Source: Actinomycetota bacterium (lineage in GTDB: Bacteria > Actinomycetota > Acidimicrobiia > Spongiisociales > UBA4744). From it: 64,000 nt of DNA. A model generated the notes under the pieces. The model searched no databases and was not told the DNA's origin. It saw only the letters and a list, made by a program, of their open reading frames with translations. Positions 15,785 to 28,417 of the stretch are shown here, in pieces. Position 1 is the first letter of the stretch, and the number at the start of each line of letters is the position of its first letter. A program made the position numbers and the translations under genes. Location: contig JAADGS010000045.1 of assembly GCA_013152275.1 (NCBI GenBank), forward strand, positions 1 through 64,000, given 5' to 3'.

Positions 15785-16316
15785 AGCGGCCTCCTTGCGT
15801 TCGTGGGCGGACACCAATAACACTACGCGTCCACCACCGGCCGGTCGCGCGTTTTGGAGGTCATCGAAAGAATTGGCCGAGTAGCCGCACGTTGAGGTTG
15901 TCGACGATCCGGGGGTCCGCATTCTTGTCACGCATTCCACCCATTCCGGGTCCTGTACGCGCGCGTTGGCCACCTTCGGATCGTCGTGCACGGCAGCGCT
16001 CCATTCTGCAACCCGCGCCCGCTCTTGCGATGGCAAATACCTGCATTCTCCCTGCCTGCAAACGCCACCGAGTTGTTCTGCTCGAGATCGCGGCCAAGGC
16101 AGGTCGGCTGTTCACGAATGACTTCTCCACGATGACGCCGCCGACAACGAGATACCTACTTGACATTCCAGGCGACTGGAAGGAATAAGGTGTGGGCATC
16201 GTGCAGATCCGATCGACTTTCTGGAGGACTTCGTTCATGAGTTGGCGCTTCTATGGCGAGGCATGGTCCGTGGCATGGTGAATGCGGAAATGGAGAGCTC
16301 CAGCAGTGAGACCACG

Positions 16317-16877
16317 ATGCAGTCTCAGCGGCTTCTGCGTGCCCCACTGCGCGTCGGCATCGTGTTCACGCTCCTTGTTCTCGGTCTCAACCTGGGTGCA
16401 AACCTCATGATCGGTGGCTTTGAACCGCAGATCCACGAGCTGTTCCTGCGCGGCGTATCGTCGCAAGCCCTCGTACCACCGACCAATGAGCCACAATTCG
16501 CCGAGATGCCCCCGCCGAAGACCGACGCGGATGTGGCACATATGGCATTCGAGGTCGTGCTCACCGATTTCTTCCCGCAGAGTCTCTACAACACGGTCTA
16601 CGTCTTCCTCATCAGTCTCTTCGCGGCAAATGCCCCGCTCATCGGTGATCATGAACGACGGGTCATTACCTGGATGGTGGGTGTGGGCGGCCTCACCTTC
16701 GCCACTGTGTTCCTGGTCACCGCACTTCTCACCCCCACCTTTGGGCCCGCGGGCCACCAGATCGCCCGCACCTGGCTTTTCCCCATCCCCGCGCTGATGA
16801 TCGCGGGTGCGTTTACCTGGACGATCTTCGCCCACATCGCCGGCCTGTTCGCCCCGAGCCCGAAGACTGCCGGTTGA
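16317..16877 (+). CDS. Unknown ~4-TM membrane protein heading the rnfC-rnfD-apbE operon
   Basis: Hydrophobic segments; stop lies 1 nt before the rnfC ATG; start uncertain. Confidence 0.7.
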   Translation: MQSQRLLRAPLRVGIVFTLLVLGLNLGANLMIGGFEPQIHELFLRGVSSQALVPPTNEPQFAEMPPPKTDADVAHMAFEVVLTDFFPQSLYNTVYVFLISLFAANAPLIGDHERRVITWMVGVGGLTFATVFLVTALLTPTFGPAGHQIARTWLFPIPALMIAGAFTWTIFAHIAGLFAPSPKTAG

Positions 16878-16878
16878 C

Positions 16879-18201
16879 ATGCAACTGTTCACACGGCGCC
16901 GACATGTTCCATTGCTCGATGCCCGCAAGGACGCGACGGCGACGGCTGCGATCACAACGTTGCCTGCGCCGGAAGTCGCGATCGTCCCCCTCCGTCAGCA
17001 TATCGGTGAGACGTGTGAGCCGATCGTACGTGTTGGAGACCGCGTGCGGATCGGCGATGTCATCGGCGAGAGCCCCGCTCGAGTGGCGGCAACGGTTCAC
17101 GCCTCTGTTTCGGGGAGGATCCTCGAAGTGGCAGAACATCCGTACCCGCTCGGAGGTGTCGTCCCTGCGGTGGTGATCGAGAACGACGGGAGGGACGAGT
17201 GGACGGATCTCGCCGTGCTCGCGGATCTGGAGAAGGCAACCCCCGAGCAGCTTCGGGCGGCTCTTCGTCGTGCGGGCATCGTTGGGATGGCCGGCGCAGG
17301 ATTCCCGGCCGCGGTCAAGCTCGATCCCCCTGCCGATGTCGACATCGACATGGTGATCATCAATGTGATGGAGGGAGAGCCGTATCTCTCGGCGGACCAT
17401 CGCATGGCCGTCGAACGCACGGACGAAGTCGTCGACGGCTTGCAGTGGATCATGCGCATGGTCGATGCTCCCCGCGCTGTTTTCGCCGTGGAATCGGACA
17501 AGGAAGATGCGGCAGCTGCGCTCGAACGTGCGGTGCACACGGCGGGTCTCGGCTCGGTGGTCGAGGTACGGCTCATGTCGCGCGACTATGCGGCAGGGGC
17601 CGAGAAGATCCTGATCAAGGTGCTCCTGGGCCGAGAGGTCCCCTCTGGAGGGTTCCCCTACGACATCGGGGTCGTGAGCCAGAACGTGAGTACCGCCGCC
17701 GCGATCTCCCAGGCCGTGCGTCGAGGACGTCCGCTTGTGGAACGTGTTGTGACGGTGGCCGGTGAGGCCGTAGAACACCCTGGCAATTACCTGGTGCGAA
17801 TCGGTGCCTCGTTCTCCCACGTCCTCGAGCAGACCGGCGCGACCGGAGATGCCGACCGGGTGATCATGGGTGGCCCCATGATGGGGATCGCTCAACGAGA
17901 CCTGGCAGTCCCCGTCATCAAGCCGACTACCGGGATCTTGGCGCTCTCTCCAGAGGAATCTCGACAAGGCTCGGAGGTTCCCTGCATCCACTGTGCCTGG
18001 TGCGTCGAAGTGTGCCCCATCGGTCTGATGCCGTATCTCTTCGTCGATCTCATCCGGTTGAACAAGCCGTTACTGGCAGATACCTATCACCTCTTCGACT
18101 GTTTCGAGTGCGGCCTGTGTGACTACGTCTGTCCATCCAACATCCCCCTCGTCGAAGTCATACGTGCCGGAAAGCGCACCATCCGCGAGGAACGGCGATG
18201 A
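16879..18201 (+). CDS. rnfC: RnfC/RsxC-like NADH/FMN/2x[4Fe-4S] subunit
   Basis: VHASVSG, GIVGMAGAGFP, MGGPMMG, CIHCAWCVEVCP and CFECGLCDYVCP. Confidence 0.95.
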   Translation: MQLFTRRRHVPLLDARKDATATAAITTLPAPEVAIVPLRQHIGETCEPIVRVGDRVRIGDVIGESPARVAATVHASVSGRILEVAEHPYPLGGVVPAVVIENDGRDEWTDLAVLADLEKATPEQLRAALRRAGIVGMAGAGFPAAVKLDPPADVDIDMVIINVMEGEPYLSADHRMAVERTDEVVDGLQWIMRMVDAPRAVFAVESDKEDAAAALERAVHTAGLGSVVEVRLMSRDYAAGAEKILIKVLLGREVPSGGFPYDIGVVSQNVSTAAAISQAVRRGRPLVERVVTVAGEAVEHPGNYLVRIGASFSHVLEQTGATGDADRVIMGGPMMGIAQRDLAVPVIKPTTGILALSPEESRQGSEVPCIHCAWCVEVCPIGLMPYLFVDLIRLNKPLLADTYHLFDCFECGLCDYVCPSNIPLVEVIRAGKRTIREERR

Positions 18202-19109
18202 AGGCCGTCTCCTCACCGCACATCAGACGCTCACTGACGAAACCTCGGGTGATGTGGGAGGTCGTCGCGGCTCTTGTCCCGGCGGCCAGTTTCGGCGTGT
18301 GGTATTTCGGTCCAGCCGAGACGCTTCCACAGTTGGCCGCCGCGATCGTCGCCGCCGTTGCAGCCCAGGCAATCGTCGAGCGGCTGCGTCACCGGCCCAT
18401 CACCATCATGGACGGAGCGCCGTTTCTGACGGGTCTCATCCTGGGCATGAGTCTTCCGCCAGGCCTCAACCCGTTGATCGCCGCCGCCGGGGGAGCGGTG
18501 GCAACCGGGGTGATCAAGGCGTTCGTCACCACGTCCACCGGCAGAAGCCTGCTGAACCCCGCCATGGCGGCGCGGGTGCTGATCGTGTCGGAGTTCTTGG
18601 TACCGATGACGACGTTCCCCGTCGACGCCGTATCGGAGGCAACTCCACTCGGCGCCGCTTCGCGCCCCGGCTATCTCGACATGTTCTTCGGTACTCGGGG
18701 CGGTTCGATCGGTGAGACCACGACGATACTGCTCCTTCTCGGTGGCGCGTACCTCTTGTGGCGGGGCATCATCCGGTGGCATCTTCCCGCGGCCTACCTT
18801 GTCGGCGTCGCGGCAACATCGGTGGTTCTCGGACGCCAACCTCTCTTCGATCTGCTGGCGGGCGCCAGCATCATGACCGCCTTCTTCATCGTCACCGACC
18901 CCACAACGTCACCGGCAACAGTGCCGGGACGAGTGGGATTCGGCTTGGGTGCCGCCGCCATCGGCACCTTCATCCGCATCACCACATTGTTTCCCACCGG
19001 GGAGGCGTTGGGAGTCGTTCTCGCCAACTTCGCCACACCTTTCATCGATCGCGTGGTAACCAATCGTGTCTACGGGACTCGAAAGCAAGGGAGAAGGGCG
19101 CCGGCATGA
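18198..19109 (+). CDS. rnfD: RnfD/NqrB-like membrane flavoprotein
   Basis: SSPHIR, LNPAMAAR, flavinylation-type DAVSEATPL, GSIGETT, FFIVTDPTTSP. Confidence 0.93.
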   Translation: MKAVSSPHIRRSLTKPRVMWEVVAALVPAASFGVWYFGPAETLPQLAAAIVAAVAAQAIVERLRHRPITIMDGAPFLTGLILGMSLPPGLNPLIAAAGGAVATGVIKAFVTTSTGRSLLNPAMAARVLIVSEFLVPMTTFPVDAVSEATPLGAASRPGYLDMFFGTRGGSIGETTTILLLLGGAYLLWRGIIRWHLPAAYLVGVAATSVVLGRQPLFDLLAGASIMTAFFIVTDPTTSPATVPGRVGFGLGAAAIGTFIRITTLFPTGEALGVVLANFATPFIDRVVTNRVYGTRKQGRRAPA

Positions 19110-20095
19110 TCTCCCGCCGTCACTTCCTCAGGGACATGCTCGGCGTCGTCGCAGGTGCGGGACTGGTCGGTTTGCCCGTGTGGGAGTGGACAGCCAGGCG
19201 CGACCGGGTCGATCGATACGTCCGTGCGATGATGGGGACCGATGTCGAAATCGTCCTGATCGGTCTTGAACCGGACGTCGCCGCGTCCATTGCGGAGAGG
19301 GCGTTTGCCGGCATGGAAGGGGTGGCGAGTCGCCTTACGGTCTTCGATCCGACCAGTGAGTTGAACGACTTCAACGCGACCGCCGGTTCGGGACCCGTCC
19401 GCCTCGCTCCGGATCTGGAAGCCGTGTTGTTTCAGGCAAATGCGTTGCGCTCGGCCACGGAGGGCGCGTTTCTCCCTCTCAGCCGGCTCTGGCGACCCGA
19501 TGAGGGCCGAGTCCCGGAGACCGCGGCGATTGAAGAAGCCCTCGACGCCGTCGCCCGGGCGGAGGTGAACCTGTCGGGCGGCCTGGGGCAGCTCACGTCG
19601 ACCGCAAGCCTCGACCTCGGGGGAATCGCCAAAGGTTTTGCCGTGGATCGGGCGGTTCGCATCCTGCGGGCGGCAGGTGTCACGAATGCGATCGTCGATG
19701 CAGGAGGAGACCTGCGGCTTCTTGGCTCCCACGCCGGGCGACCCTGGCGGGTCGGTATCCCCGACCCCTTCCGACCCGAGCGGATCTCCAGGGTCCTTCA
19801 CCTTCGCGACGCTGCCGTGGCGACATCCGGTGACTACGAACGATTCTTCACCGTCGACGGCGTTCGCTATCACCACATCGTCGACCCGCGTACGGGATAC
19901 CCTGCAAGAGGGACCCACTCGTTCACGGTGGTTCTGCCCGATGGGATGTCGGCGGACGGCGCAGCCACGGCCGGATTCGTGCTTGGGCCGAGGGACGGTC
20001 TCGAGTTCGTCACCGGAAAAGGAGGCGAGGCTCTTGCCATCGGTGCGGACCGAACCTGGGTGCGCACGGGCGGTCTCGAGGACCGCCTGGCCTGA
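19106..20095 (+). CDS. apbE: FAD:protein FMN transferase with Tat signal
   Basis: SRRHFL twin-arginine motif; MMGT, LDLGGIAKGFAVD, VATSGDYER, HHIVDPRTGYP. Confidence 0.95.
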   Translation: MISRRHFLRDMLGVVAGAGLVGLPVWEWTARRDRVDRYVRAMMGTDVEIVLIGLEPDVAASIAERAFAGMEGVASRLTVFDPTSELNDFNATAGSGPVRLAPDLEAVLFQANALRSATEGAFLPLSRLWRPDEGRVPETAAIEEALDAVARAEVNLSGGLGQLTSTASLDLGGIAKGFAVDRAVRILRAAGVTNAIVDAGGDLRLLGSHAGRPWRVGIPDPFRPERISRVLHLRDAAVATSGDYERFFTVDGVRYHHIVDPRTGYPARGTHSFTVVLPDGMSADGAATAGFVLGPRDGLEFVTGKGGEALAIGADRTWVRTGGLEDRLA

Positions 20096-20399
20096 GAGAT
20101 GATCCTGTAGCCGCCGCGCGAGGACAGTACGACTTCCCTTTGCGCATCTGAGGTTGCTGGTTCGATCCCGGCAGTCTTCAGGAGGAAGAACATGCTCGGG
20201 TGGCTATCCGGCGGAGCATGCCTCTTGTGCAATCTCGGGTGCATCAGGACGTGTCGCGGCTGGACTGCTCGAGCCTTCGAGTTCGACATGGTCCGCAGCC
20301 ACATCTGTGGACTCGATGTGCAACTACTGCGAGTTGCCGTATTCCTCGAACCTGAGTGTCAGGCCGGAGAACTAGTTGGGAATCCCCGTGCGCCGTGTC

Positions 20400-22110: not shown

Positions 22111-23463
22111 TCATGCAAGGTCTCGACTCGCCGACTCGGTGACGAAGCCGTGTTCGCGCCACGCGATCATCCCTCCGGCGAGGTTTCGTACATTGCGATA
22201 GCCCAACGTGGTCAGGAAGAGGAGACCAAGAAGTGAGGCGTTGCCCTTCTCGCAGACGCTGAGCACGGGCGCTTCGAGATCTTCGGGGAGGTCCGAAACG
22301 CGCTCGTTCAGGTTCTTGAGGGGCATGTTGACGGCACCCGGGATGTGCTCCAAGGAGAAGTGCAAATCGTTACGCACGTCCATGACGAACGGCTTGTGGT
22401 TCCGCCACAGCTCGTGGGCCGATTCGACGTCGATGGTCAAGGCCATGTTGGCTCTGATATTCCCGGCCATCTGGTCCAGCAGCCGCTCCTTTCCAGTTGG
22501 TGGGGTCGCTTGCGCCGAGCGCAGACCGGCCAGATGTTTGACGACCGATGATGCATACTTGAAAGCGCTATCGGGGAAGATCACCACTACCAGATTGCCG
22601 GGCTCGTCGGCTATCAGCTTGAACGCTCCCTCCAGCGCCATGGCAGAACTCGGTCCTGCTGTGATGCTCTCCTCACGGTTCAGCCGCAAGCAGAGTTCGA
22701 AGGCGTTCTGGGTTTGGACCTCCACCAAACCGTCGTACTGCTCAGGCTGGAAGAAGTGCGTCTGCTGTAGTTGTTGGATGCTGCGCACACCGGGGATGTC
22801 ATGTCCCTCATTGGGGTGGACACCAAGGACCTGCACATTCGGATTCTGTTCCTTGAGGAACCGGCCCGTCCCGGTAATCGTGCCGCATGTACCGAGACCC
22901 GCGACCAGGTGCGTCACCCTGCCCCGTGTCTGACGCCAGATCTCAGGTCCGGTGGTCTTGTAGTGCGCCTCGGGGTTGGCCTTGTTCTCGTACTGGTTCA
23001 GCATCTGGAACTCCGGGCGTTCGGCGATCTCCATCGCGTGGGCGATGGCACCCTCCGGTGCCCATGGTGCGGGGCACAGGGCGTCCTCCAATTCCAGCAC
23101 CTCGGCCCCGAAGAAACGCAGCATCGTCCGTTTCTCCAGCGGAATCGAGCTGGAAAGAGGAGTGGTGAGAGAGTAGCCCTTCGCGTTGGCGATCATGGCG
23201 AGACCGAGACCGGTATTGCCCGAGGTCGGCTCCACCAGCTTCTGGCCTGATCCGATCTCCCCGCGTTGCTCCGCGTTGCCGACCATGTTGGACGCCACCC
23301 GGTCCTTCACGGACCCGAACGGGTTGAACCATTCCAGCTTCGCGTACACCTGTGTGTGTTCGAATGGGCTCACCCGAGTCAGACGCACAAGGGGTGTGGG
23401 GTTGTCGGGGTTACAGAGCAGTCCGAGAATCGAATCGTAGACGCGAAGGGAATGGTCGTTCAT
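22111..23463 (-). CDS. PLP cysteine synthase fused to a C-terminal rhodanese domain
   Basis: NPFGSVKDR, EPTSGNTG, GLGTCGT; rhodanese DVR...HIPGAVN...CEKGNAS...LAGGMIAW. Confidence 0.92.
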   Translation of the reverse strand: MNDHSLRVYDSILGLLCNPDNPTPLVRLTRVSPFEHTQVYAKLEWFNPFGSVKDRVASNMVGNAEQRGEIGSGQKLVEPTSGNTGLGLAMIANAKGYSLTTPLSSSIPLEKRTMLRFFGAEVLELEDALCPAPWAPEGAIAHAMEIAERPEFQMLNQYENKANPEAHYKTTGPEIWRQTRGRVTHLVAGLGTCGTITGTGRFLKEQNPNVQVLGVHPNEGHDIPGVRSIQQLQQTHFFQPEQYDGLVEVQTQNAFELCLRLNREESITAGPSSAMALEGAFKLIADEPGNLVVVIFPDSAFKYASSVVKHLAGLRSAQATPPTGKERLLDQMAGNIRANMALTIDVESAHELWRNHKPFVMDVRNDLHFSLEHIPGAVNMPLKNLNERVSDLPEDLEAPVLSVCEKGNASLLGLLFLTTLGYRNVRNLAGGMIAWREHGFVTESASRDLA

Positions 23464-23464
23464 G

Positions 23465-24412
23465 TCATGCTCCTCGAAGGCCTGTCGTGGATGGTTGCCA
23501 CTTTGATCTGTCCTTCCGCCCCGCCACGGCTGTCGGTCGGGATTCGGAGTGTTCCCCGGCCGGGCGGCAGTCGCCCAACATGTCTGAGACGACTTGTGGA
23601 ACCGCATCGAGATGCCGGCCGGACGCGGACACCTGTACCCTCGAAGCAAGGGCGGCGCGAAGCTCGACGACGTGCCCCACCACCAGTATCGCCGGCGCCT
23701 GGACCGCAACCGTCTCGGCCGCGATCTCCCCGAGGTTCGTGACCAGGACACGCTCATCGGAGGTTGTTCCCCTTTGGATGAAGGCGGCCGGCTCGTCGGG
23801 TGAGCGGCCTGTCGCGATCAGAGAGCGGGCAATGGCGCTCCGGCGGCGCACCCCCATGAGAATCACCAACGTGTCGATCTCCGCGTAGCGGGACCACTCC
23901 GGCATGGATCCGTTCTCTTTGTGGCCGGTGATGACCGCGAACGATTCGGCGACGCCCCGCTGGGTGAGGGGGATGCCGGCCACACCGGGCACCGAGGTCG
24001 CCGAGGTGATCCCGGGGACGAACTCCACCTCGATGTTGTGACGGCGGAGGTATTCCCACTCCTCGCCTCCACGTCCGAAGATGAGGGGATCTCCACTCTT
24101 GAGGCGCACAACCGTCTTTCCCAACGCGACGTAGGTGAGCATCGTGCTATTGATACGATCTTGGCTGTTGCCCGGCCCTCCCGGCCGCTTCCCAACGTCG
24201 ATGAGGATTGCCGCCGAGTCGGCCATTCTGATGATCTCCTGGCTGACCAGACGGTCGTGGAGCACGACATCGGCTTCCTCGAGGACGCGAAGCGCCTTGA
24301 GGGTAAGGAGTTCGGGGTCCCCGGGACCGGCCCCCACCAGGAACACCTTGCCAGAGGAAACCGCTGCCCGCCGTCCGGAGGGGACGGCTTCGTTTCCTGT
24401 CACGAGCCGCAT
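23465..24412 (-). CDS. cobA: Uroporphyrinogen-III C-methyltransferase
   Basis: VGAGPGDPELLTLK, RLKSGDPLIFGRGGEE, VPGITSA. Confidence 0.95.
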   Translation of the reverse strand: MRLVTGNEAVPSGRRAAVSSGKVFLVGAGPGDPELLTLKALRVLEEADVVLHDRLVSQEIIRMADSAAILIDVGKRPGGPGNSQDRINSTMLTYVALGKTVVRLKSGDPLIFGRGGEEWEYLRRHNIEVEFVPGITSATSVPGVAGIPLTQRGVAESFAVITGHKENGSMPEWSRYAEIDTLVILMGVRRRSAIARSLIATGRSPDEPAAFIQRGTTSDERVLVTNLGEIAAETVAVQAPAILVVGHVVELRAALASRVQVSASGRHLDAVPQVVSDMLGDCRPAGEHSESRPTAVAGRKDRSKWQPSTTGLRGA

Positions 24413-25092
24413 GTCGTGGCCTCCCCGTTGGGCGGGTGGATACCGCACTCGGTCTTCGTGCCGTTCCAGCGACCTGAACGAGTGTCGCTCGGGTCGAGAG
24501 GCAGCGACGTGCACGGAGCACAGCCGATGCTCGGATAACCGGCAGCGTACAAGGGGTGTAACGGCAGGTCGTTGGCGCGCGAGAAGTCGAGGACTTCTTC
24601 CCAGGTCCAGTCGACGATCGGGTTCACCTTGATGAGCTGTTTTCCGGTGGGAAGCCGGTATCGGTCGATTCGGGGAGTTGCGGCCCTGGTCGGCGCCTGG
24701 TCACGTCGCAGTGCGGTAAACCAGATGTCGTAATCTTGCAGCGCCCGGAGGAGGGGATCGACCTTGCGCAATCGGCAGCACAGATCCGGATTCGTGAGGG
24801 GCAGGTCGTCCACGAGACCCTCGCCCAGCCCGTCGCCGGGAGTGATGTTCACCAGGTTGAGGTCCCATGTCTCGGTGAGCTGGTCGCGGAATGCGTACGT
24901 CTCGGGGAAATGAAGGCCGGTGTCCACGAAGAGCACCGGGATGTCAGGCCGGAAGCGTCGGATGATGCTGAGCAATGCGATGCCGCCCGCCTGGAAGCTG
25001 CAGGTGATACCCACGTTGCCTGGATACTCGAGAGCGGCACCGACCAGCGTCTCGGCCTTGAGCTCCTTGCGCGTGCGAGTGGTGGCGGTCAC
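24400..25092 (-). CDS. cysH: APS/PAPS reductase (Fe-S type)
   Basis: DTGLHFPET, CCRLRK, SIGCAPCT, ECGIH. Confidence 0.95.
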   Translation of the reverse strand: MTATTRTRKELKAETLVGAALEYPGNVGITCSFQAGGIALLSIIRRFRPDIPVLFVDTGLHFPETYAFRDQLTETWDLNLVNITPGDGLGEGLVDDLPLTNPDLCCRLRKVDPLLRALQDYDIWFTALRRDQAPTRAATPRIDRYRLPTGKQLIKVNPIVDWTWEEVLDFSRANDLPLHPLYAAGYPSIGCAPCTSLPLDPSDTRSGRWNGTKTECGIHPPNGEATTCGS

Positions 25093-25772
25093 AGTTCCTC
25101 CTCGGCATCAAATAGCTCTTGCGCAGCTCGATAGGCGGCTTCCATATCGCCACGCCGCACGTGCTGGAAGGTCTCGTCGCCGATCAGCCGGCGCCAGGCT
25201 CGGCGCCTTTGCGCCGGATCGGTGAAACGGTCGGCCACCTCCGGCCTGAGGTTGCCCAGCAGGTCGAGATAGGCCCCGTACTCGGGTCCGATGCCGTGCG
25301 CGATCCGGTCTCGAAGCCAGACGGAGAACGCCGGCGCCAGACCGCTGGAGGAGACCGCAACGACAAGATCGCCCTGCCGGTGTACCGCCGGAAGGATGAA
25401 GTTGCAGTGGTGCGGGTCATCGGGGGCGTTCAGCAGAATCGAGTGCTCTTCGGCCTCCTGCCACACCCGCCGGTTGACATCCCGATCCTCGGTGGCCGCG
25501 ACGGCGAGGAAGCAGCCGGTGAGGTCACCCTTCCGATACGGTCTCGGGATCCAGGCGATCCGCCTGTCCTCGAACCAGGTGAACAGACGTTCGGTCAGCT
25601 CTGGACTGACTACGGTGACGTCGCCATGGGCGGCGAGCAGACCCTCGACCTTGCCCTCGGCCACCTTTCCCCCTCCGACGACCATGCAGGATCGACCTTC
25701 CAGGCGGAGGAGGAGCGGGTAGTGTGCCGGAGTGCTCCCGGACGGTTGTGTGCCTGTGTGGGTGACGGTCAT
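25089..25772 (-). CDS. Precorrin-2 dehydrogenase/sirohydrochlorin ferrochelatase (CysG N-terminal/SirC-like)
   Basis: VVGGGKVA, NAPDDPHHCNFILPA, VAVSSSGLAP. Confidence 0.93.
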   Translation of the reverse strand: MTVTHTGTQPSGSTPAHYPLLLRLEGRSCMVVGGGKVAEGKVEGLLAAHGDVTVVSPELTERLFTWFEDRRIAWIPRPYRKGDLTGCFLAVAATEDRDVNRRVWQEAEEHSILLNAPDDPHHCNFILPAVHRQGDLVVAVSSSGLAPAFSVWLRDRIAHGIGPEYGAYLDLLGNLRPEVADRFTDPAQRRRAWRRLIGDETFQHVRRGDMEAAYRAAQELFDAEEEL

Positions 25773-27529
25773 GGGAGGGTCGCTCCGTGGATCGGGGATG
25801 GTCGGTACTCGTCGAGATCGATCGGGTCCGGTGTGGGGATGGGAAAGCGCTCATCACGGTCGGCCGATTCGGCATCTCCCACACCGCTGCGGAGACAGAA
25901 GTCTCCGAAGGTCTCTCCGTCGAATCTGTCATCTCGATATGCAGTCAGAATCGGCGAGAGCAGGTGAACCAGGTCCTCCCTGGCCACGTTCTCGGCGAGA
26001 AGCACATTGAGGCGCGTCCCGAGGGCGCTGCCGCCCACATGGACGTCGTACCTGCCCTTGCGCCTGCCGACGAAGGCGATCTCGGCGCTCTGAGGGCGCG
26101 CGCACCCATTTGGGCAACCGGTCATGCGCACTCGGATACTTTCTTCGCCGATCCCCAGTGCGTCCAGTTCGGTCTGGAGAGCCCGTGTGACCTCGGGAAG
26201 GACACGTTCGGACTCGGTGACCGCCAAGGGGCACGTGGGAAGGGCCGGGCATGCCATGGAGTGCAGGATCACCGGGGGTATCCGACCGGCCGGAAGGACG
26301 CCGTGATCCTCCAGCGTCGATACGACGTCCACTCGCTCACGATCGGTGAGGTCGGTGAGAAGAAGGTTTTGCCCTGGAGTGAGCCGGAATCCGGGCCGGA
26401 ACCGCTCGGCGACGGCACGGAGTCCGGTGCGCAACAGCACATCGCCACGGTCGGCGATACGTCCACCTTCGATCGGCACTCCGACGAACCATCGGCCGGC
26501 GTCCTGACGATGCACACCCAGATGGTCGTCGGCGTCGGTCCACGACAAGGGCTGTGGGGCAGCAAGACGTCGGCCGAGCCGTTGTTCCAGAGCATCCTTG
26601 AAGATGTCAACGCCCCAGTGGTCGATCAGATACTTCAACCGGGCTTGTTTACGGTCCAATCGGTCACCGAAATCCTTCTGGATACCGACGATCCCTTCGA
26701 GTACCTCCAAGAGGTCCTCGGGAGCAACAAAGCAGAGTGGGTCGGCCAGCCGCGGGAAGGTGTCGGGTCTGCCGTGAGTTCGGCCGAGACCGCCGCCGAC
26801 CAGCAACGTGAACCCCTCCAAACTCCCGGATCGCACATCGGCGATGATGCCCACATCCTGGGAGTAGACATCTATGCAGTTGTCTTCGGGGAAAGCCAGA
26901 CCGATCTTGAACTTGCGAGGCAGGTACGTCCTGCCGTAGAGCGGCTCCTCGTCGGCAGCGGCGGCGGTGACTGCCCGTTCACCGTTCATCCAGATGTCGT
27001 AGTAGGCGCGGGTGCGTGGGCGAAAATGATCGGCGATCTGCTCTGCGAAGGTGGCCAGGCCCACACGTGCTCTGTCAGGGAGCGGCGCCGGGCAGCTCAT
27101 CACGTTGCGCACGGCGTCGCCACTGGCGCCAAGTGTCGTGACAAGACGTTGATTCAGTGTCCGAATCAGTGTGGCGAGATCGGTCTTGCGGGCATGGTGG
27201 AACTGCACGGCCTGACGGGTTGTGAGACGAAGGGTTCCGTTCCCTGCCTGGTCGGCCAGTCGATCCAACGCCAGGTACTGTTCGGTCGTCAGCACGCCTC
27301 CCGGGATTGCTGCCCTGACCATGAAGATCACGTCTGGGTTCGCGCCGGGTGCCAGGTCGGCGCGGACATCCCGATTGTCCTCCTCGGTGATTCCGTGGAA
27401 CTTCAGTACCACGACGTTTTCTTTGCTGAACGACGGTTTCTCGTCATCCAGTTCCCGGACGATGGTGCCTCGAAGAAAGCCGCTGCCGGCCTTGATCTGC
27501 TCGACCAACGAATGCTCGATAGAGGTCAT
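25769..27529 (-). CDS. cysI: Siroheme sulfite reductase hemoprotein (CysI/Sir)
   Basis: LTTRQ, YLPRKFK, ACPALPTC and TGCPNGC ligands. Confidence 0.92.
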   Translation of the reverse strand: MTSIEHSLVEQIKAGSGFLRGTIVRELDDEKPSFSKENVVVLKFHGITEEDNRDVRADLAPGANPDVIFMVRAAIPGGVLTTEQYLALDRLADQAGNGTLRLTTRQAVQFHHARKTDLATLIRTLNQRLVTTLGASGDAVRNVMSCPAPLPDRARVGLATFAEQIADHFRPRTRAYYDIWMNGERAVTAAAADEEPLYGRTYLPRKFKIGLAFPEDNCIDVYSQDVGIIADVRSGSLEGFTLLVGGGLGRTHGRPDTFPRLADPLCFVAPEDLLEVLEGIVGIQKDFGDRLDRKQARLKYLIDHWGVDIFKDALEQRLGRRLAAPQPLSWTDADDHLGVHRQDAGRWFVGVPIEGGRIADRGDVLLRTGLRAVAERFRPGFRLTPGQNLLLTDLTDRERVDVVSTLEDHGVLPAGRIPPVILHSMACPALPTCPLAVTESERVLPEVTRALQTELDALGIGEESIRVRMTGCPNGCARPQSAEIAFVGRRKGRYDVHVGGSALGTRLNVLLAENVAREDLVHLLSPILTAYRDDRFDGETFGDFCLRSGVGDAESADRDERFPIPTPDPIDLDEYRPSPIHGATLP

Positions 27530-27535
27530 GCCCGC

Positions 27536-28417
27536 TCAGCAGCCTTCCAGGTCCGACGCGCTCACCGGATCGCCTCTCCGCCGGCCCCGTTCCACCGGCG
27601 CGCCGGTTGTTGCGTAGTCCACCCAGGAGCGCTCGTAGTGCATGACCCGCGGGTAACCCAGCAATTCCTTGAGGACGAACCAAGTGTGGGCCGACCGTGC
27701 ACCCGACAGTGAGTAGGTGACGACACGGGCGTCTCGGGGGACCGATTCGCGCTCGAAGAGTGAGCGCAACTCGTTCAAGGACCGAAAGCTCCGGTCGACG
27801 TTGGTCGTCCGCGGCCAGGGAACATTCCTGGCCCCGGGAATGTGACCTCCTGCATAGTTCTGACGCTGCGATGCATTTGGGGGTGCCAACTGTTCTCCCC
27901 GATACTCTTGTGGCGAGCGGGTGTCGACGAGGACGGTGTCACCATCTGCGGCGAGGACGTGGTCTCTGCTCGCTCTCAGTTCTTGCCGATCTGCGCCCGT
28001 CACCCGAAAACCGGTGGCTTGTGGTGAGGCGATCTCCCGGGTCAGCGGGCGTGCCTCGAGTCGCCACTTCTCGCGCCCACCGTCGAGCAGATGGACGTCG
28101 TCGAAGCCCCGATACTTGAGCAACCAGTAGCCGAACGCTCCCAACCAGTTTCCGGGTCCTCCATACACGACGACAGTGGACCTGTCGTCAACCCCGGCCC
28201 GGGAGAGCACGCGACTCAGTTCGGCTTGATCAGGGCAAGAAGGCGGCTCCGGACGCTGCAGATCGCACAGTCCACTCCAGAGGGTTGCGCCGGGAAGGTG
28301 GCCCTGGTCGTAGGCGGCCGGATCCGCGGCCACCTCGAGGATCCTGATCCGGGGGTCCCCAAGCCGACGTTCCAGCCACTCGGTGGTGACGAGGGCATCT
28401 GGATTGGCATAGCTCAT
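27536..28417 (-). CDS. Tandem-rhodanese sulfurtransferase (CysA/SseA-like) lacking the catalytic Cys
   Basis: GHLPGA, LLDGG, DTRSPQEY, GHIPGA; active-site loop reads YSLSGARS. Confidence 0.88.
   Translation of the reverse strand: MSYANPDALVTTEWLERRLGDPRIRILEVAADPAAYDQGHLPGATLWSGLCDLQRPEPPSCPDQAELSRVLSRAGVDDRSTVVVYGGPGNWLGAFGYWLLKYRGFDDVHLLDGGREKWRLEARPLTREIASPQATGFRVTGADRQELRASRDHVLAADGDTVLVDTRSPQEYRGEQLAPPNASQRQNYAGGHIPGARNVPWPRTTNVDRSFRSLNELRSLFERESVPRDARVVTYSLSGARSAHTWFVLKELLGYPRVMHYERSWVDYATTGAPVERGRRRGDPVSASDLEGC

Follow-up and report, generated by a model that had tools for sequence, protein, structure and literature searches.

Can half of an Rnf complex work by itself? The question is raised by four consecutive plus-strand genes in a 64,000-nucleotide (nt) stretch of DNA (the window) from contig JAADGS010000045.1 (our C12) of an Actinomycetota bacterium (GCA_013152275.1), the genome of which (G000) comprises 3.07 Mb, with a completeness of 100% and a contamination of 0.89%. 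The genes encode a membrane protein with four transmembrane helices (4-TM), homologues of RnfC and RnfD, and the flavin transferase ApbE. An initial annotation, made from the sequence alone, took them for a tightly coupled, stand-alone conduit for electrons from NAD(H) to the membrane or the outside, with the 4-TM protein as its terminal partner, possibly binding heme or quinone. The coupling is real (a gap of 1 nt between the 4-TM gene and rnfC, then overlaps of 4 nt between rnfC and rnfD and between rnfD and apbE), and a conduit is still the best reading; the heme or quinone role is weakened, and the best clue to function, a metal-type promoter and its regulon, had been missed. We conclude that the cassette is probably a metal-regulated outward conduit. 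More tentatively, we favor a metal-induced, NAD(H)-fed wire that would deliver electrons to copper (or silver or gold) held by the 4-TM protein; a metal ion as acceptor is credible, at slightly less than even chances.

As had been proposed, the remaining Rnf subunits are missing. A six-frame search of the host genome found no match to RnfA/E (PF02508), RnfG (PF04205), or RnfB (PF04060), with positive results in control genomes, and tblastn recovered a single rnfD, a single rnfC, and a second, distant apbE. In the five other carriers (G122, G190, G238, G312, and G401), there was likewise no match to PF02508 or PF04205 (E ≤ 0.01) and none to PF04060 over the cut-off, G401 having a single sub-cut-off match of 18 bits; no protein with the FMN-binding domain (PF04205) of RnfG and NqrC was found in any of the six genomes searched. 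Of the six subunits that make up an Rnf complex, therefore, only the RnfC and RnfD families are represented. The carriers are metagenome-type assemblies in 50–340 contigs, five of the six at least 95% complete.

The two subunits that are present retain the residues expected to hold their cofactors. RnfC, which matches the RnfC chains of 7ZC6 and 9ERI with an E value of 1e-96, has the FMN (flavin mononucleotide)/NAD domain (TIGR01945, over the cut-off) and two [4Fe-4S] motifs of the CxxCxxCxxxCP form, C369–C379 and C408–C418, both of them found in 23 of 23 clade proteins. These motifs had already been read from the translation, together with the unusual EGEP and YAAG sequences. The latter are real and clade-wide: the MEGEP and YAAGAE-type changes occur in all 23 clade proteins and in none of 94 outgroup proteins. 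RnfC has 21 clade-specific changes, several of them close to the flavin site, and two new acidic residues, D207 and D236. The NAD-contacting residues are nonetheless intact. By motif spacing plus alignments, F142, K147, E165, E167, D173, Y237, and E242 of RnfC correspond to F71, K76, E95, E97, D103, Y180, and E185 of Aquifex aeolicus NuoF, which contact the nucleotide (PMC9299107), and since all seven are retained, the NAD site is likely to be functional.

RnfD contains, at D143–T149, the DAVSEAT flavinylation-type motif noted in the initial annotation. By alignment, it has both the flavinylation threonine and the riboflavin ligands of an Rnf-type subunit: T149, N120, and D234, invariant in 27 of 27 proteins, align to T156, N123, and D249 of Acetobacterium woodii RnfD (9ERI_D), of which T156 carries covalent FMN and the other two bind riboflavin (PMC11889175). 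T149 is the predicted covalent FMN site, and N120 and D234 are the predicted riboflavin ligands. A loose flavinylation-motif scan gave seven matches in 2412 called proteins, that of RnfD being the sole one in the cassette. Nineteen RnfD columns, including Q57 in place of E, separate the clade (26 proteins) from the outgroup (67). T263, T267, and E269 are clade-specific (26/26 vs. 0/67), and the outer-loop signature of the clade is FPTGE; the loop that holds them comes after the equivalents of I274/R275 and Y280 of A. woodii RnfD, a position assigned to the periplasmic side (PMC11889175). We infer that the outer face of RnfD near the FMN was refitted following the loss of RnfG. The lack of cysteine in RnfD (26 of 26 clade proteins; 1 of 67 in the outgroup) was considered as a copper adaptation and rejected, 77 of 112 membrane-like stretches in the host genome being equally Cys-free.

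ApbE was said to carry a twin-arginine translocation (Tat) signal. It does have a twin-arginine-type N-terminus, of the form SRR-H/R-F in all four homologues checked, but its score with the Tat model TIGR01409 is borderline, 16.0 against a cut-off of 16.7. The second apbE of the genome (contig C5, 78798–81229) adjoins small exported proteins and a membrane protein that resembles, by eye, a ferric-reductase/MsrQ-type domain.

The 4-TM protein gave nothing significant in Pfam, NCBIfam, and PDB sequence searches; 18 homologues were found besides itself. Its predicted model (predicted local distance difference test score 72) has four long helices, and the best natural matches in a fold search were V-ATPase proteolipids, MAPEG enzymes, and styrene oxide isomerase (SOI). 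Against SOI (8PNU), the Z score was 9.9, with a root-mean-square deviation of 3.2 over 131 aligned residues and 12% identity; pieces of oxidase subunit I reached a Z of about 8. Searched against 1.84 billion representatives, the 4-TM profile found just four matches, with a single outside relative, P0118 (E 6e-4; hhalign 94%), the Atlas model of which matches SOI and COX1 clusters (TM 0.61/0.71 for the SOI clusters). Atlas leads for the 4-TM homologue P0011 likewise point toward SOI and COX1, all at under 0.9. At these values, which are not decisive for helical bundles, the model suggests a four-helix fold resembling SOI, MAPEG, and the heme-copper oxidase repeat, with indirect support through P0118. 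P0118 and the Atlas clusters themselves represent an unnamed four-helix family of 156–190 amino acids (aa) in Pseudomonadota, Methylomirabilota, and Verrucomicrobiota, with an HxH motif, an SOI/COX1-like predicted fold, and no Pfam family.

Conservation in the 4-TM family does not extend to all of the histidines first singled out. The histidine of the FAH motif, H173, which had been listed as a feature of the protein, is kept in just 4 of 19 homologues; E79, D84, and H147 are conserved in all 19, and H40, E63, M64, D72, H75, and M76 in 18 each. Cysteine is almost absent (mean 0.05 per protein). Histidine, methionine, and carboxylate clusters are typical copper ligands, and the conserved residues of these kinds would lie, given a topology derived from charge bias, in two predicted outer loops on the same side as the RnfD FMN. 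The counterpart here of the HxH motif that P0118 has in helix 2 is, by alignment, F86-P87-Q88, three turns downstream of H75; SOI binds heme through H58 (PMC11374702). With HxH replaced by FPQ, H173 unconserved, and RnfD without the N-terminal helices of the NqrB quinone site, heme or quinone binding by the 4-TM protein has lost ground. Gene order suggests that RnfD and the 4-TM protein are physical partners; prediction of their complex, with scores of 0.18 and 0.14 where the mark is 0.32 and with controls not folded, speaks neither for nor against contact.

The cassette is a real, conserved unit, not a decaying remnant. RnfD (E ≤ 1e-10) and the 4-TM profile match the same five of 401 genomes of the class, the host included, in three families. 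Seventeen loci were compared for gene order (two end within the 4-TM gene, and several duplicate one genome), and all those with downstream DNA show the order 4-TM, RnfC, RnfD, ApbE; the proposed association of the 4-TM gene with rnfCD thus holds in every one of them. Flanks vary among the carriers. The block shared with G122 spans 16159–20096, beginning at the −35 box and ending with the ApbE stop, and has the opposite orientation there with respect to the flanking DNA; in G342, of the same genus, a different gene follows the upstream neighbor of the cassette. The gene content first given for the module is right, but its span, 16317 to 20095, left out the promoter that belongs to the conserved unit. 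The ratio of nonsynonymous to synonymous substitution rates (dN/dS) is 0.07–0.23, with no stops, in all 20 gene pairs (each of the four genes compared with five relatives). In an RnfD tree of 54 rows (13 of 26 clade rows, P0049, and 40 of 67 outgroup rows), the clade and P0049 group together on a long stem with a support of 100/99; as the root is unknown, we name no donor. The distant homologues P0049 (RnfD) and P0023 (4-TM) share 45% and 47% identity, respectively. Known occurrence is limited to about 25 RnfD clusters, from Acidimicrobiia where they carry a name; homologues with names are from Acidimicrobiia/Actinobacteria.

No genomic-island signal was seen in the GC content at the locus, and a tRNA-like stretch 3' of apbE had no ARAGORN call and no good match elsewhere in the genome. 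A plasmid search with RnfD returned 40 records, all below 60% identity (best among those listed, 35%), and the one record examined, a Gemmatirosa plasmid (L066), has an RnfE/A-type neighbor and no sign of the 4-TM-RnfC-RnfD-ApbE module. That plasmid (NZ_CP007129.1, an unannotated record; L066:737–11508) carries an Rnf-like cluster of its own, with an open reading frame (ORF) of about 1960 aa upstream of rnfC, an internal apbE, and the RnfE/A-type gene.

The promoter links the cassette to metals. Each of the 12 homologous loci aligned has a TTGAC-palindrome-TAnnnT element 5' of the operon (nine by a strict regular expression); the box occurs upstream of the cassette in G122 and G190, and a reversed-pattern control gave none. 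A matrix built from nine sites outside the window scores the window site at 39.0 bits and finds 11 sites above 23 in the host genome; two shuffled genomes reached 18.4 and 13.1. A standard promoter scan with spacers of 16–18 nt found no promoter, as expected with a 20-nt spacer. Two of the 11 boxes precede copper-type P1B ATPases (TIGR01511, 606 and 600 bits; cut-off 397). Among the products of the genes behind the 11 boxes are also a cupredoxin, YHS and SPW proteins, a type II glyceraldehyde-3-phosphate dehydrogenase (GAPDH), a Glu/Leu/Phe/Val dehydrogenase, a cyclopropane synthase, a Rieske protein, an ABC transporter, and the proteins of a complex-I-like membrane arm. One box has a MerR gene (C64:187920–188387) transcribed divergently from it, and the orthologue of this gene (59–86%) stands beside a box in all five carriers, with an HMA-domain gene on the opposite side in G401 and G312. 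An ACCTTCC-type palindrome, the CueR/HmrR consensus (PMC1526738), between −35 and −10 and a copper-exporting P1B ATPase among the targets are as in a CueR regulon; a 19-bp spacer with a regulator over the CueR cut-off is not found. The actinobacterial HMRTR group shares the CueR-type site (PMC5045206), and the regulator is probably better described as a CueR-like, HMRTR-type sensor. Judging by regulon content, copper is the likely inducer.

The complex-I-like arm (C64:175693–184156; L029:3693–12156), on the minus strand, encodes NuoL/M/N/H-like proteins and a fused, Cys-free NuoB/D-like protein behind the same MerR box, and is found in 8 of 401 genomes of the class, including four of the five cassette carriers. 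The loci at C93:3364–13520 (L030) and C31:3922–6953 (L031) include the two copper-type ATPases, one of them with CPD replacing CPC, the GAPDH (archaeal-type), the Glu/Leu/Phe/Val dehydrogenase, the cyclopropane synthase, the SPW protein, and the cupredoxin, with SufBD/ABC genes further downstream.

We propose that NADH would reduce the FMN and the two [4Fe-4S] clusters of RnfC, from which electrons would pass to riboflavin in RnfD and on to the FMN that the operon's own ApbE would attach to T149; an acceptor at the outer face of the membrane, most likely copper on a 4-TM protein that may contact RnfD, would then receive them. The RnfC-RnfD arm of Rnf would thus run in its NADH-oxidizing direction without the RnfG shuttle, the RnfA/E pump, or RnfB. 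Electrons should use the outer FMN because the operon has a dedicated ApbE and an invariant threonine. A. woodii RnfD passes electrons without moving Na+, and in the absence of RnfA/E no ion pumping is expected (PMC11889175). Canonical complex I is present in the genome, so routine NADH oxidation is already covered, and the cupric reductase CcoG, which raises copper tolerance, offers a precedent (PMC7558416). The fullest version of the proposal, a three-protein, pump-free surface metal reductase made from half of Rnf, induced by copper, in which electrons would exit by way of a covalently bound flavin and reduce copper, silver, or gold held by a protein that descends from the SOI/oxidase fold but has no heme, is doubtful as a whole.

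Several observations weigh against this reading. It is not obvious what a cell would gain from turning extracellular Cu(II) into Cu(I), the more toxic form. Many products of the regulon are metabolic enzymes without a direct connection to metals (GAPDH, Glu dehydrogenase, cyclopropane synthase), so a gene can belong to it without its product acting on a metal. Most of the 43 genomes (of 401) that have the box lack the RnfC-RnfD module, and the cassette is therefore only an occasional member of a wider regulon. The MerR regulator has three cysteines (C77, C120, and C126), falls below every NCBIfam cut-off, and scores higher as CadR/PbrR (100 bits) than as CueR (91; cut-off 147); the spacer of the window promoter is 20 nt, against 19 in CueR promoters (PMC1526738). 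The carriers are few and related rather than independent. As for the 4-TM protein, a Z of 9.9 is within the common range of helical bundles and equal to what MAPEG and V-ATPase c rings reach, a Foldseek search with the model gave nothing at E ≤ 0.001, and H75 and M76 are absent from P0023, the most distant homologue.

Among the alternatives, a metal-tolerant spare NADH:quinone oxidoreductase, NqrA-NqrB-like with its own NADH site, would keep NADH oxidized when copper damages complex I, the 4-TM protein contributing either a heme or a site for quinone. Many regulon genes offer a second metabolic or respiratory route (type II GAPDH, Glu dehydrogenase, Rieske protein, cytochrome b in G190, the complex-I-like arm), the last being frequent among carriers and rare in the class; the fold family of the 4-TM protein includes heme binders such as SOI (PMC11374702), and H147 and H75 could ligate heme. 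Yet quinone reduction from riboflavin in NqrB uses N-terminal helices absent from RnfD (PMC12174285), that route needs neither the outer FMN nor a dedicated ApbE, both of which are conserved, quinone reduction at the outer face would presumably spend membrane potential, and the HxH of P0118 is FPQ here; we consider a spare dehydrogenase unlikely. Less probable again is a supply of reductant for envelope repair, in which the wire would feed unlinked extracytoplasmic carriers (thioredoxin-like proteins, methionine-sulfoxide reductases) that undo metal-catalyzed oxidation, like DsbD/ScsB or MsrQ, with the 4-TM protein as a docking or accessory subunit. Metal regulation is consistent with it, outward, potential-assisted flow would suit low-potential acceptors, and flavinylation-linked DsbD-like and MsrQ-like systems have been described (PMC8238504); against it, no soluble carrier gene lies in or is conserved beside the cassette, the six genomes have no FMN-binding domain protein, and the 4-TM family is all but devoid of cysteine.

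Flow might instead be inward or reversible, from an outer donor to NAD+, or the proteins might form a redox sensor or valve, the 4-TM protein being merely a co-regulated metal channel or chaperone. Rnf in its forward direction passes electrons from RnfG through RnfD and RnfC to NAD+, trimers of the SOI type resemble channels (PMC11374702), and several of the clade-specific changes in RnfC are near the flavin site. For inward flow, however, the outer donor would have to lie below about −320 mV and work against the membrane potential, which rules out Cu(I), and no gene for such a donor is linked to the cassette; this is why we favor outward flow from NADH and rate the inward alternative as improbable. 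That the genes are the remnant of a decaying Rnf operon, or that an assembly gap hides rnfABEG, we regard as scarcely credible: the assemblies are fragmented, but the other subunits are missing from all six, and purifying selection, intact frames, a promoter of its own, and the long, well-supported stem all speak for a functional unit. Coordinates are given in Table 1.

Table 1. Features of the cassette, with positions in the window
Feature	Position	Strand	Basis
MerR-type promoter/operator	16160..16191	+	−35 TTGACA; 20-nt spacer with imperfect palindrome TTCCAG-N4-CTGGAA; −10-like TAAGGT
4-TM membrane protein, 186 aa	16317..16877	+	No Pfam/NCBIfam match; homologues, model, conservation
RnfC-like NAD(H)/FMN subunit, 440 aa	16879..18201	+	TIGR01945, 473 bits (cut-off 246)
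RnfD-like membrane flavoprotein, 303 aa	18198..19109	+	PF03116, 255 bits; TIGR01946, 183 (below cut-off 207)
ApbE flavin transferase, 329 aa, twin-arginine-type N-terminus	19106..20095	+	PF02424, 244 bits

In the public collection, the 4-TM gene starts at the ATG at 16275, giving 200 aa. At 16224–16281 are a GGAGG site and, upstream of the gene, an ORF of 14 codons, the stop of which overlaps this ATG; the 4-TM leader is longer in the window and in G122, the gene beginning about 23 nt past the box in other carriers. Elsewhere in the window, at 22111–28417, is a cluster that reads, by eye from the translations, like sulfur assimilation and siroheme synthesis (cysteine synthase-rhodanese, CysG parts, PAPS reductase, sulfite reductase, sulfurtransferase); ARAGORN calls a tRNA-Val at 27178–27254 inside the sulfite-reductase-like ORF, which may be false.

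We found no published description of a 4-TM-RnfC-RnfD-ApbE module in the literature searched, from which subscription journals were mostly absent; the supplementary cluster tables of PMC8238504 could list such loci. Whether RnfD/NqrB moves Na+ or electrons only is disputed (PMC12174285, PMC11889175), and the cassette is a natural isolation of the RnfC-RnfD arm: a stable unit without RnfA/E/G would allow a direct test of Na+ versus electron transfer. With it, the Rnf/Nqr family has a third architecture, flavinylation is connected with a heavy-metal regulon, and there is a first lead to the function of an unnamed four-helix family; the cassette may also offer a minimal NADH-to-surface wire for electron-transfer engineering. 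A surface metal reductase, if that is what it is, would be the first Rnf derivative recruited to metal resistance and a natural two-subunit transmembrane wire.

Among known systems, the SOI/Aq_1264-like four-helix family (8PNU; PF26512, PF27139) may resemble the 4-TM protein in predicted fold, at a Z score common among helical bundles, but gave no sequence-level match; the HxH of P0118 is replaced, and SOI is a stand-alone heme isomerase. The cupric reductases (CcoG; eukaryotic Fre, Steap, and Dcytb) are functional analogues in passing cytosolic reductant to Cu(II), and CcoG also has two [4Fe-4S] clusters and aids copper tolerance, but there is no homology, CcoG feeds Cu(I) to cytosol-side chaperones and ATPases, and Fre and Steap use heme (PMC7558416). 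A flavin-wire surface reductase is not among the cupric reductases in the part of that review available to us. The NqrA-NqrB arm of Na+-NQR is a homologous pair in which FMN and riboflavin in the membrane subunit carry electrons; NqrA, however, is described as lacking cofactors, which RnfC keeps here, and NqrB has 415 aa with extra N-terminal quinone-binding helices, against the 303 aa of our RnfD (PMC12174285).

The closest comparisons are with Rnf and its relatives. With the Rnf complex (RnfABCDEG; 7ZC6, 9ERI, 8AHX), the cassette shares RnfC and RnfD homologues that keep the residues for FMN/NAD, two [4Fe-4S] clusters, riboflavin, and covalent FMN, and an ApbE for maturation; it lacks ferredoxin input (RnfB), the membrane [2Fe-2S] cluster, and what PMC11889175 takes for the ion pump (RnfA/E), and adds the 4-TM gene, a MerR-type metal promoter, and a remodeled RnfD outer loop. 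The Nqr/Rnf-like systems (PMC8238504; bioRxiv 10.1101/2024.03.13.584918), described mostly from Actinobacteria and in some cases linked to metal (iron) handling, are partial Rnf/Nqr assemblies with ApbE, for which one-way flow of NAD(P)H electrons outward has been proposed. Like the systems of PMC8238504, the cassette has an ApbE in the cluster and only one of the two transmembrane paths. As those sources describe them, however, their NqrB/RnfD-like domain is fused to a PF00175 NAD-binding domain, they have an RnfG-like subunit, and they have lost the RnfD flavinylation threonine, whereas the cassette has a separate RnfC and an RnfD with PF03116 only, occurs in six genomes with no PF04205 match, retains the threonine, and adds the 4-TM protein. 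It is thus neither an Rnf complex nor an Nqr/Rnf-like system as defined, but it likely works like the latter.

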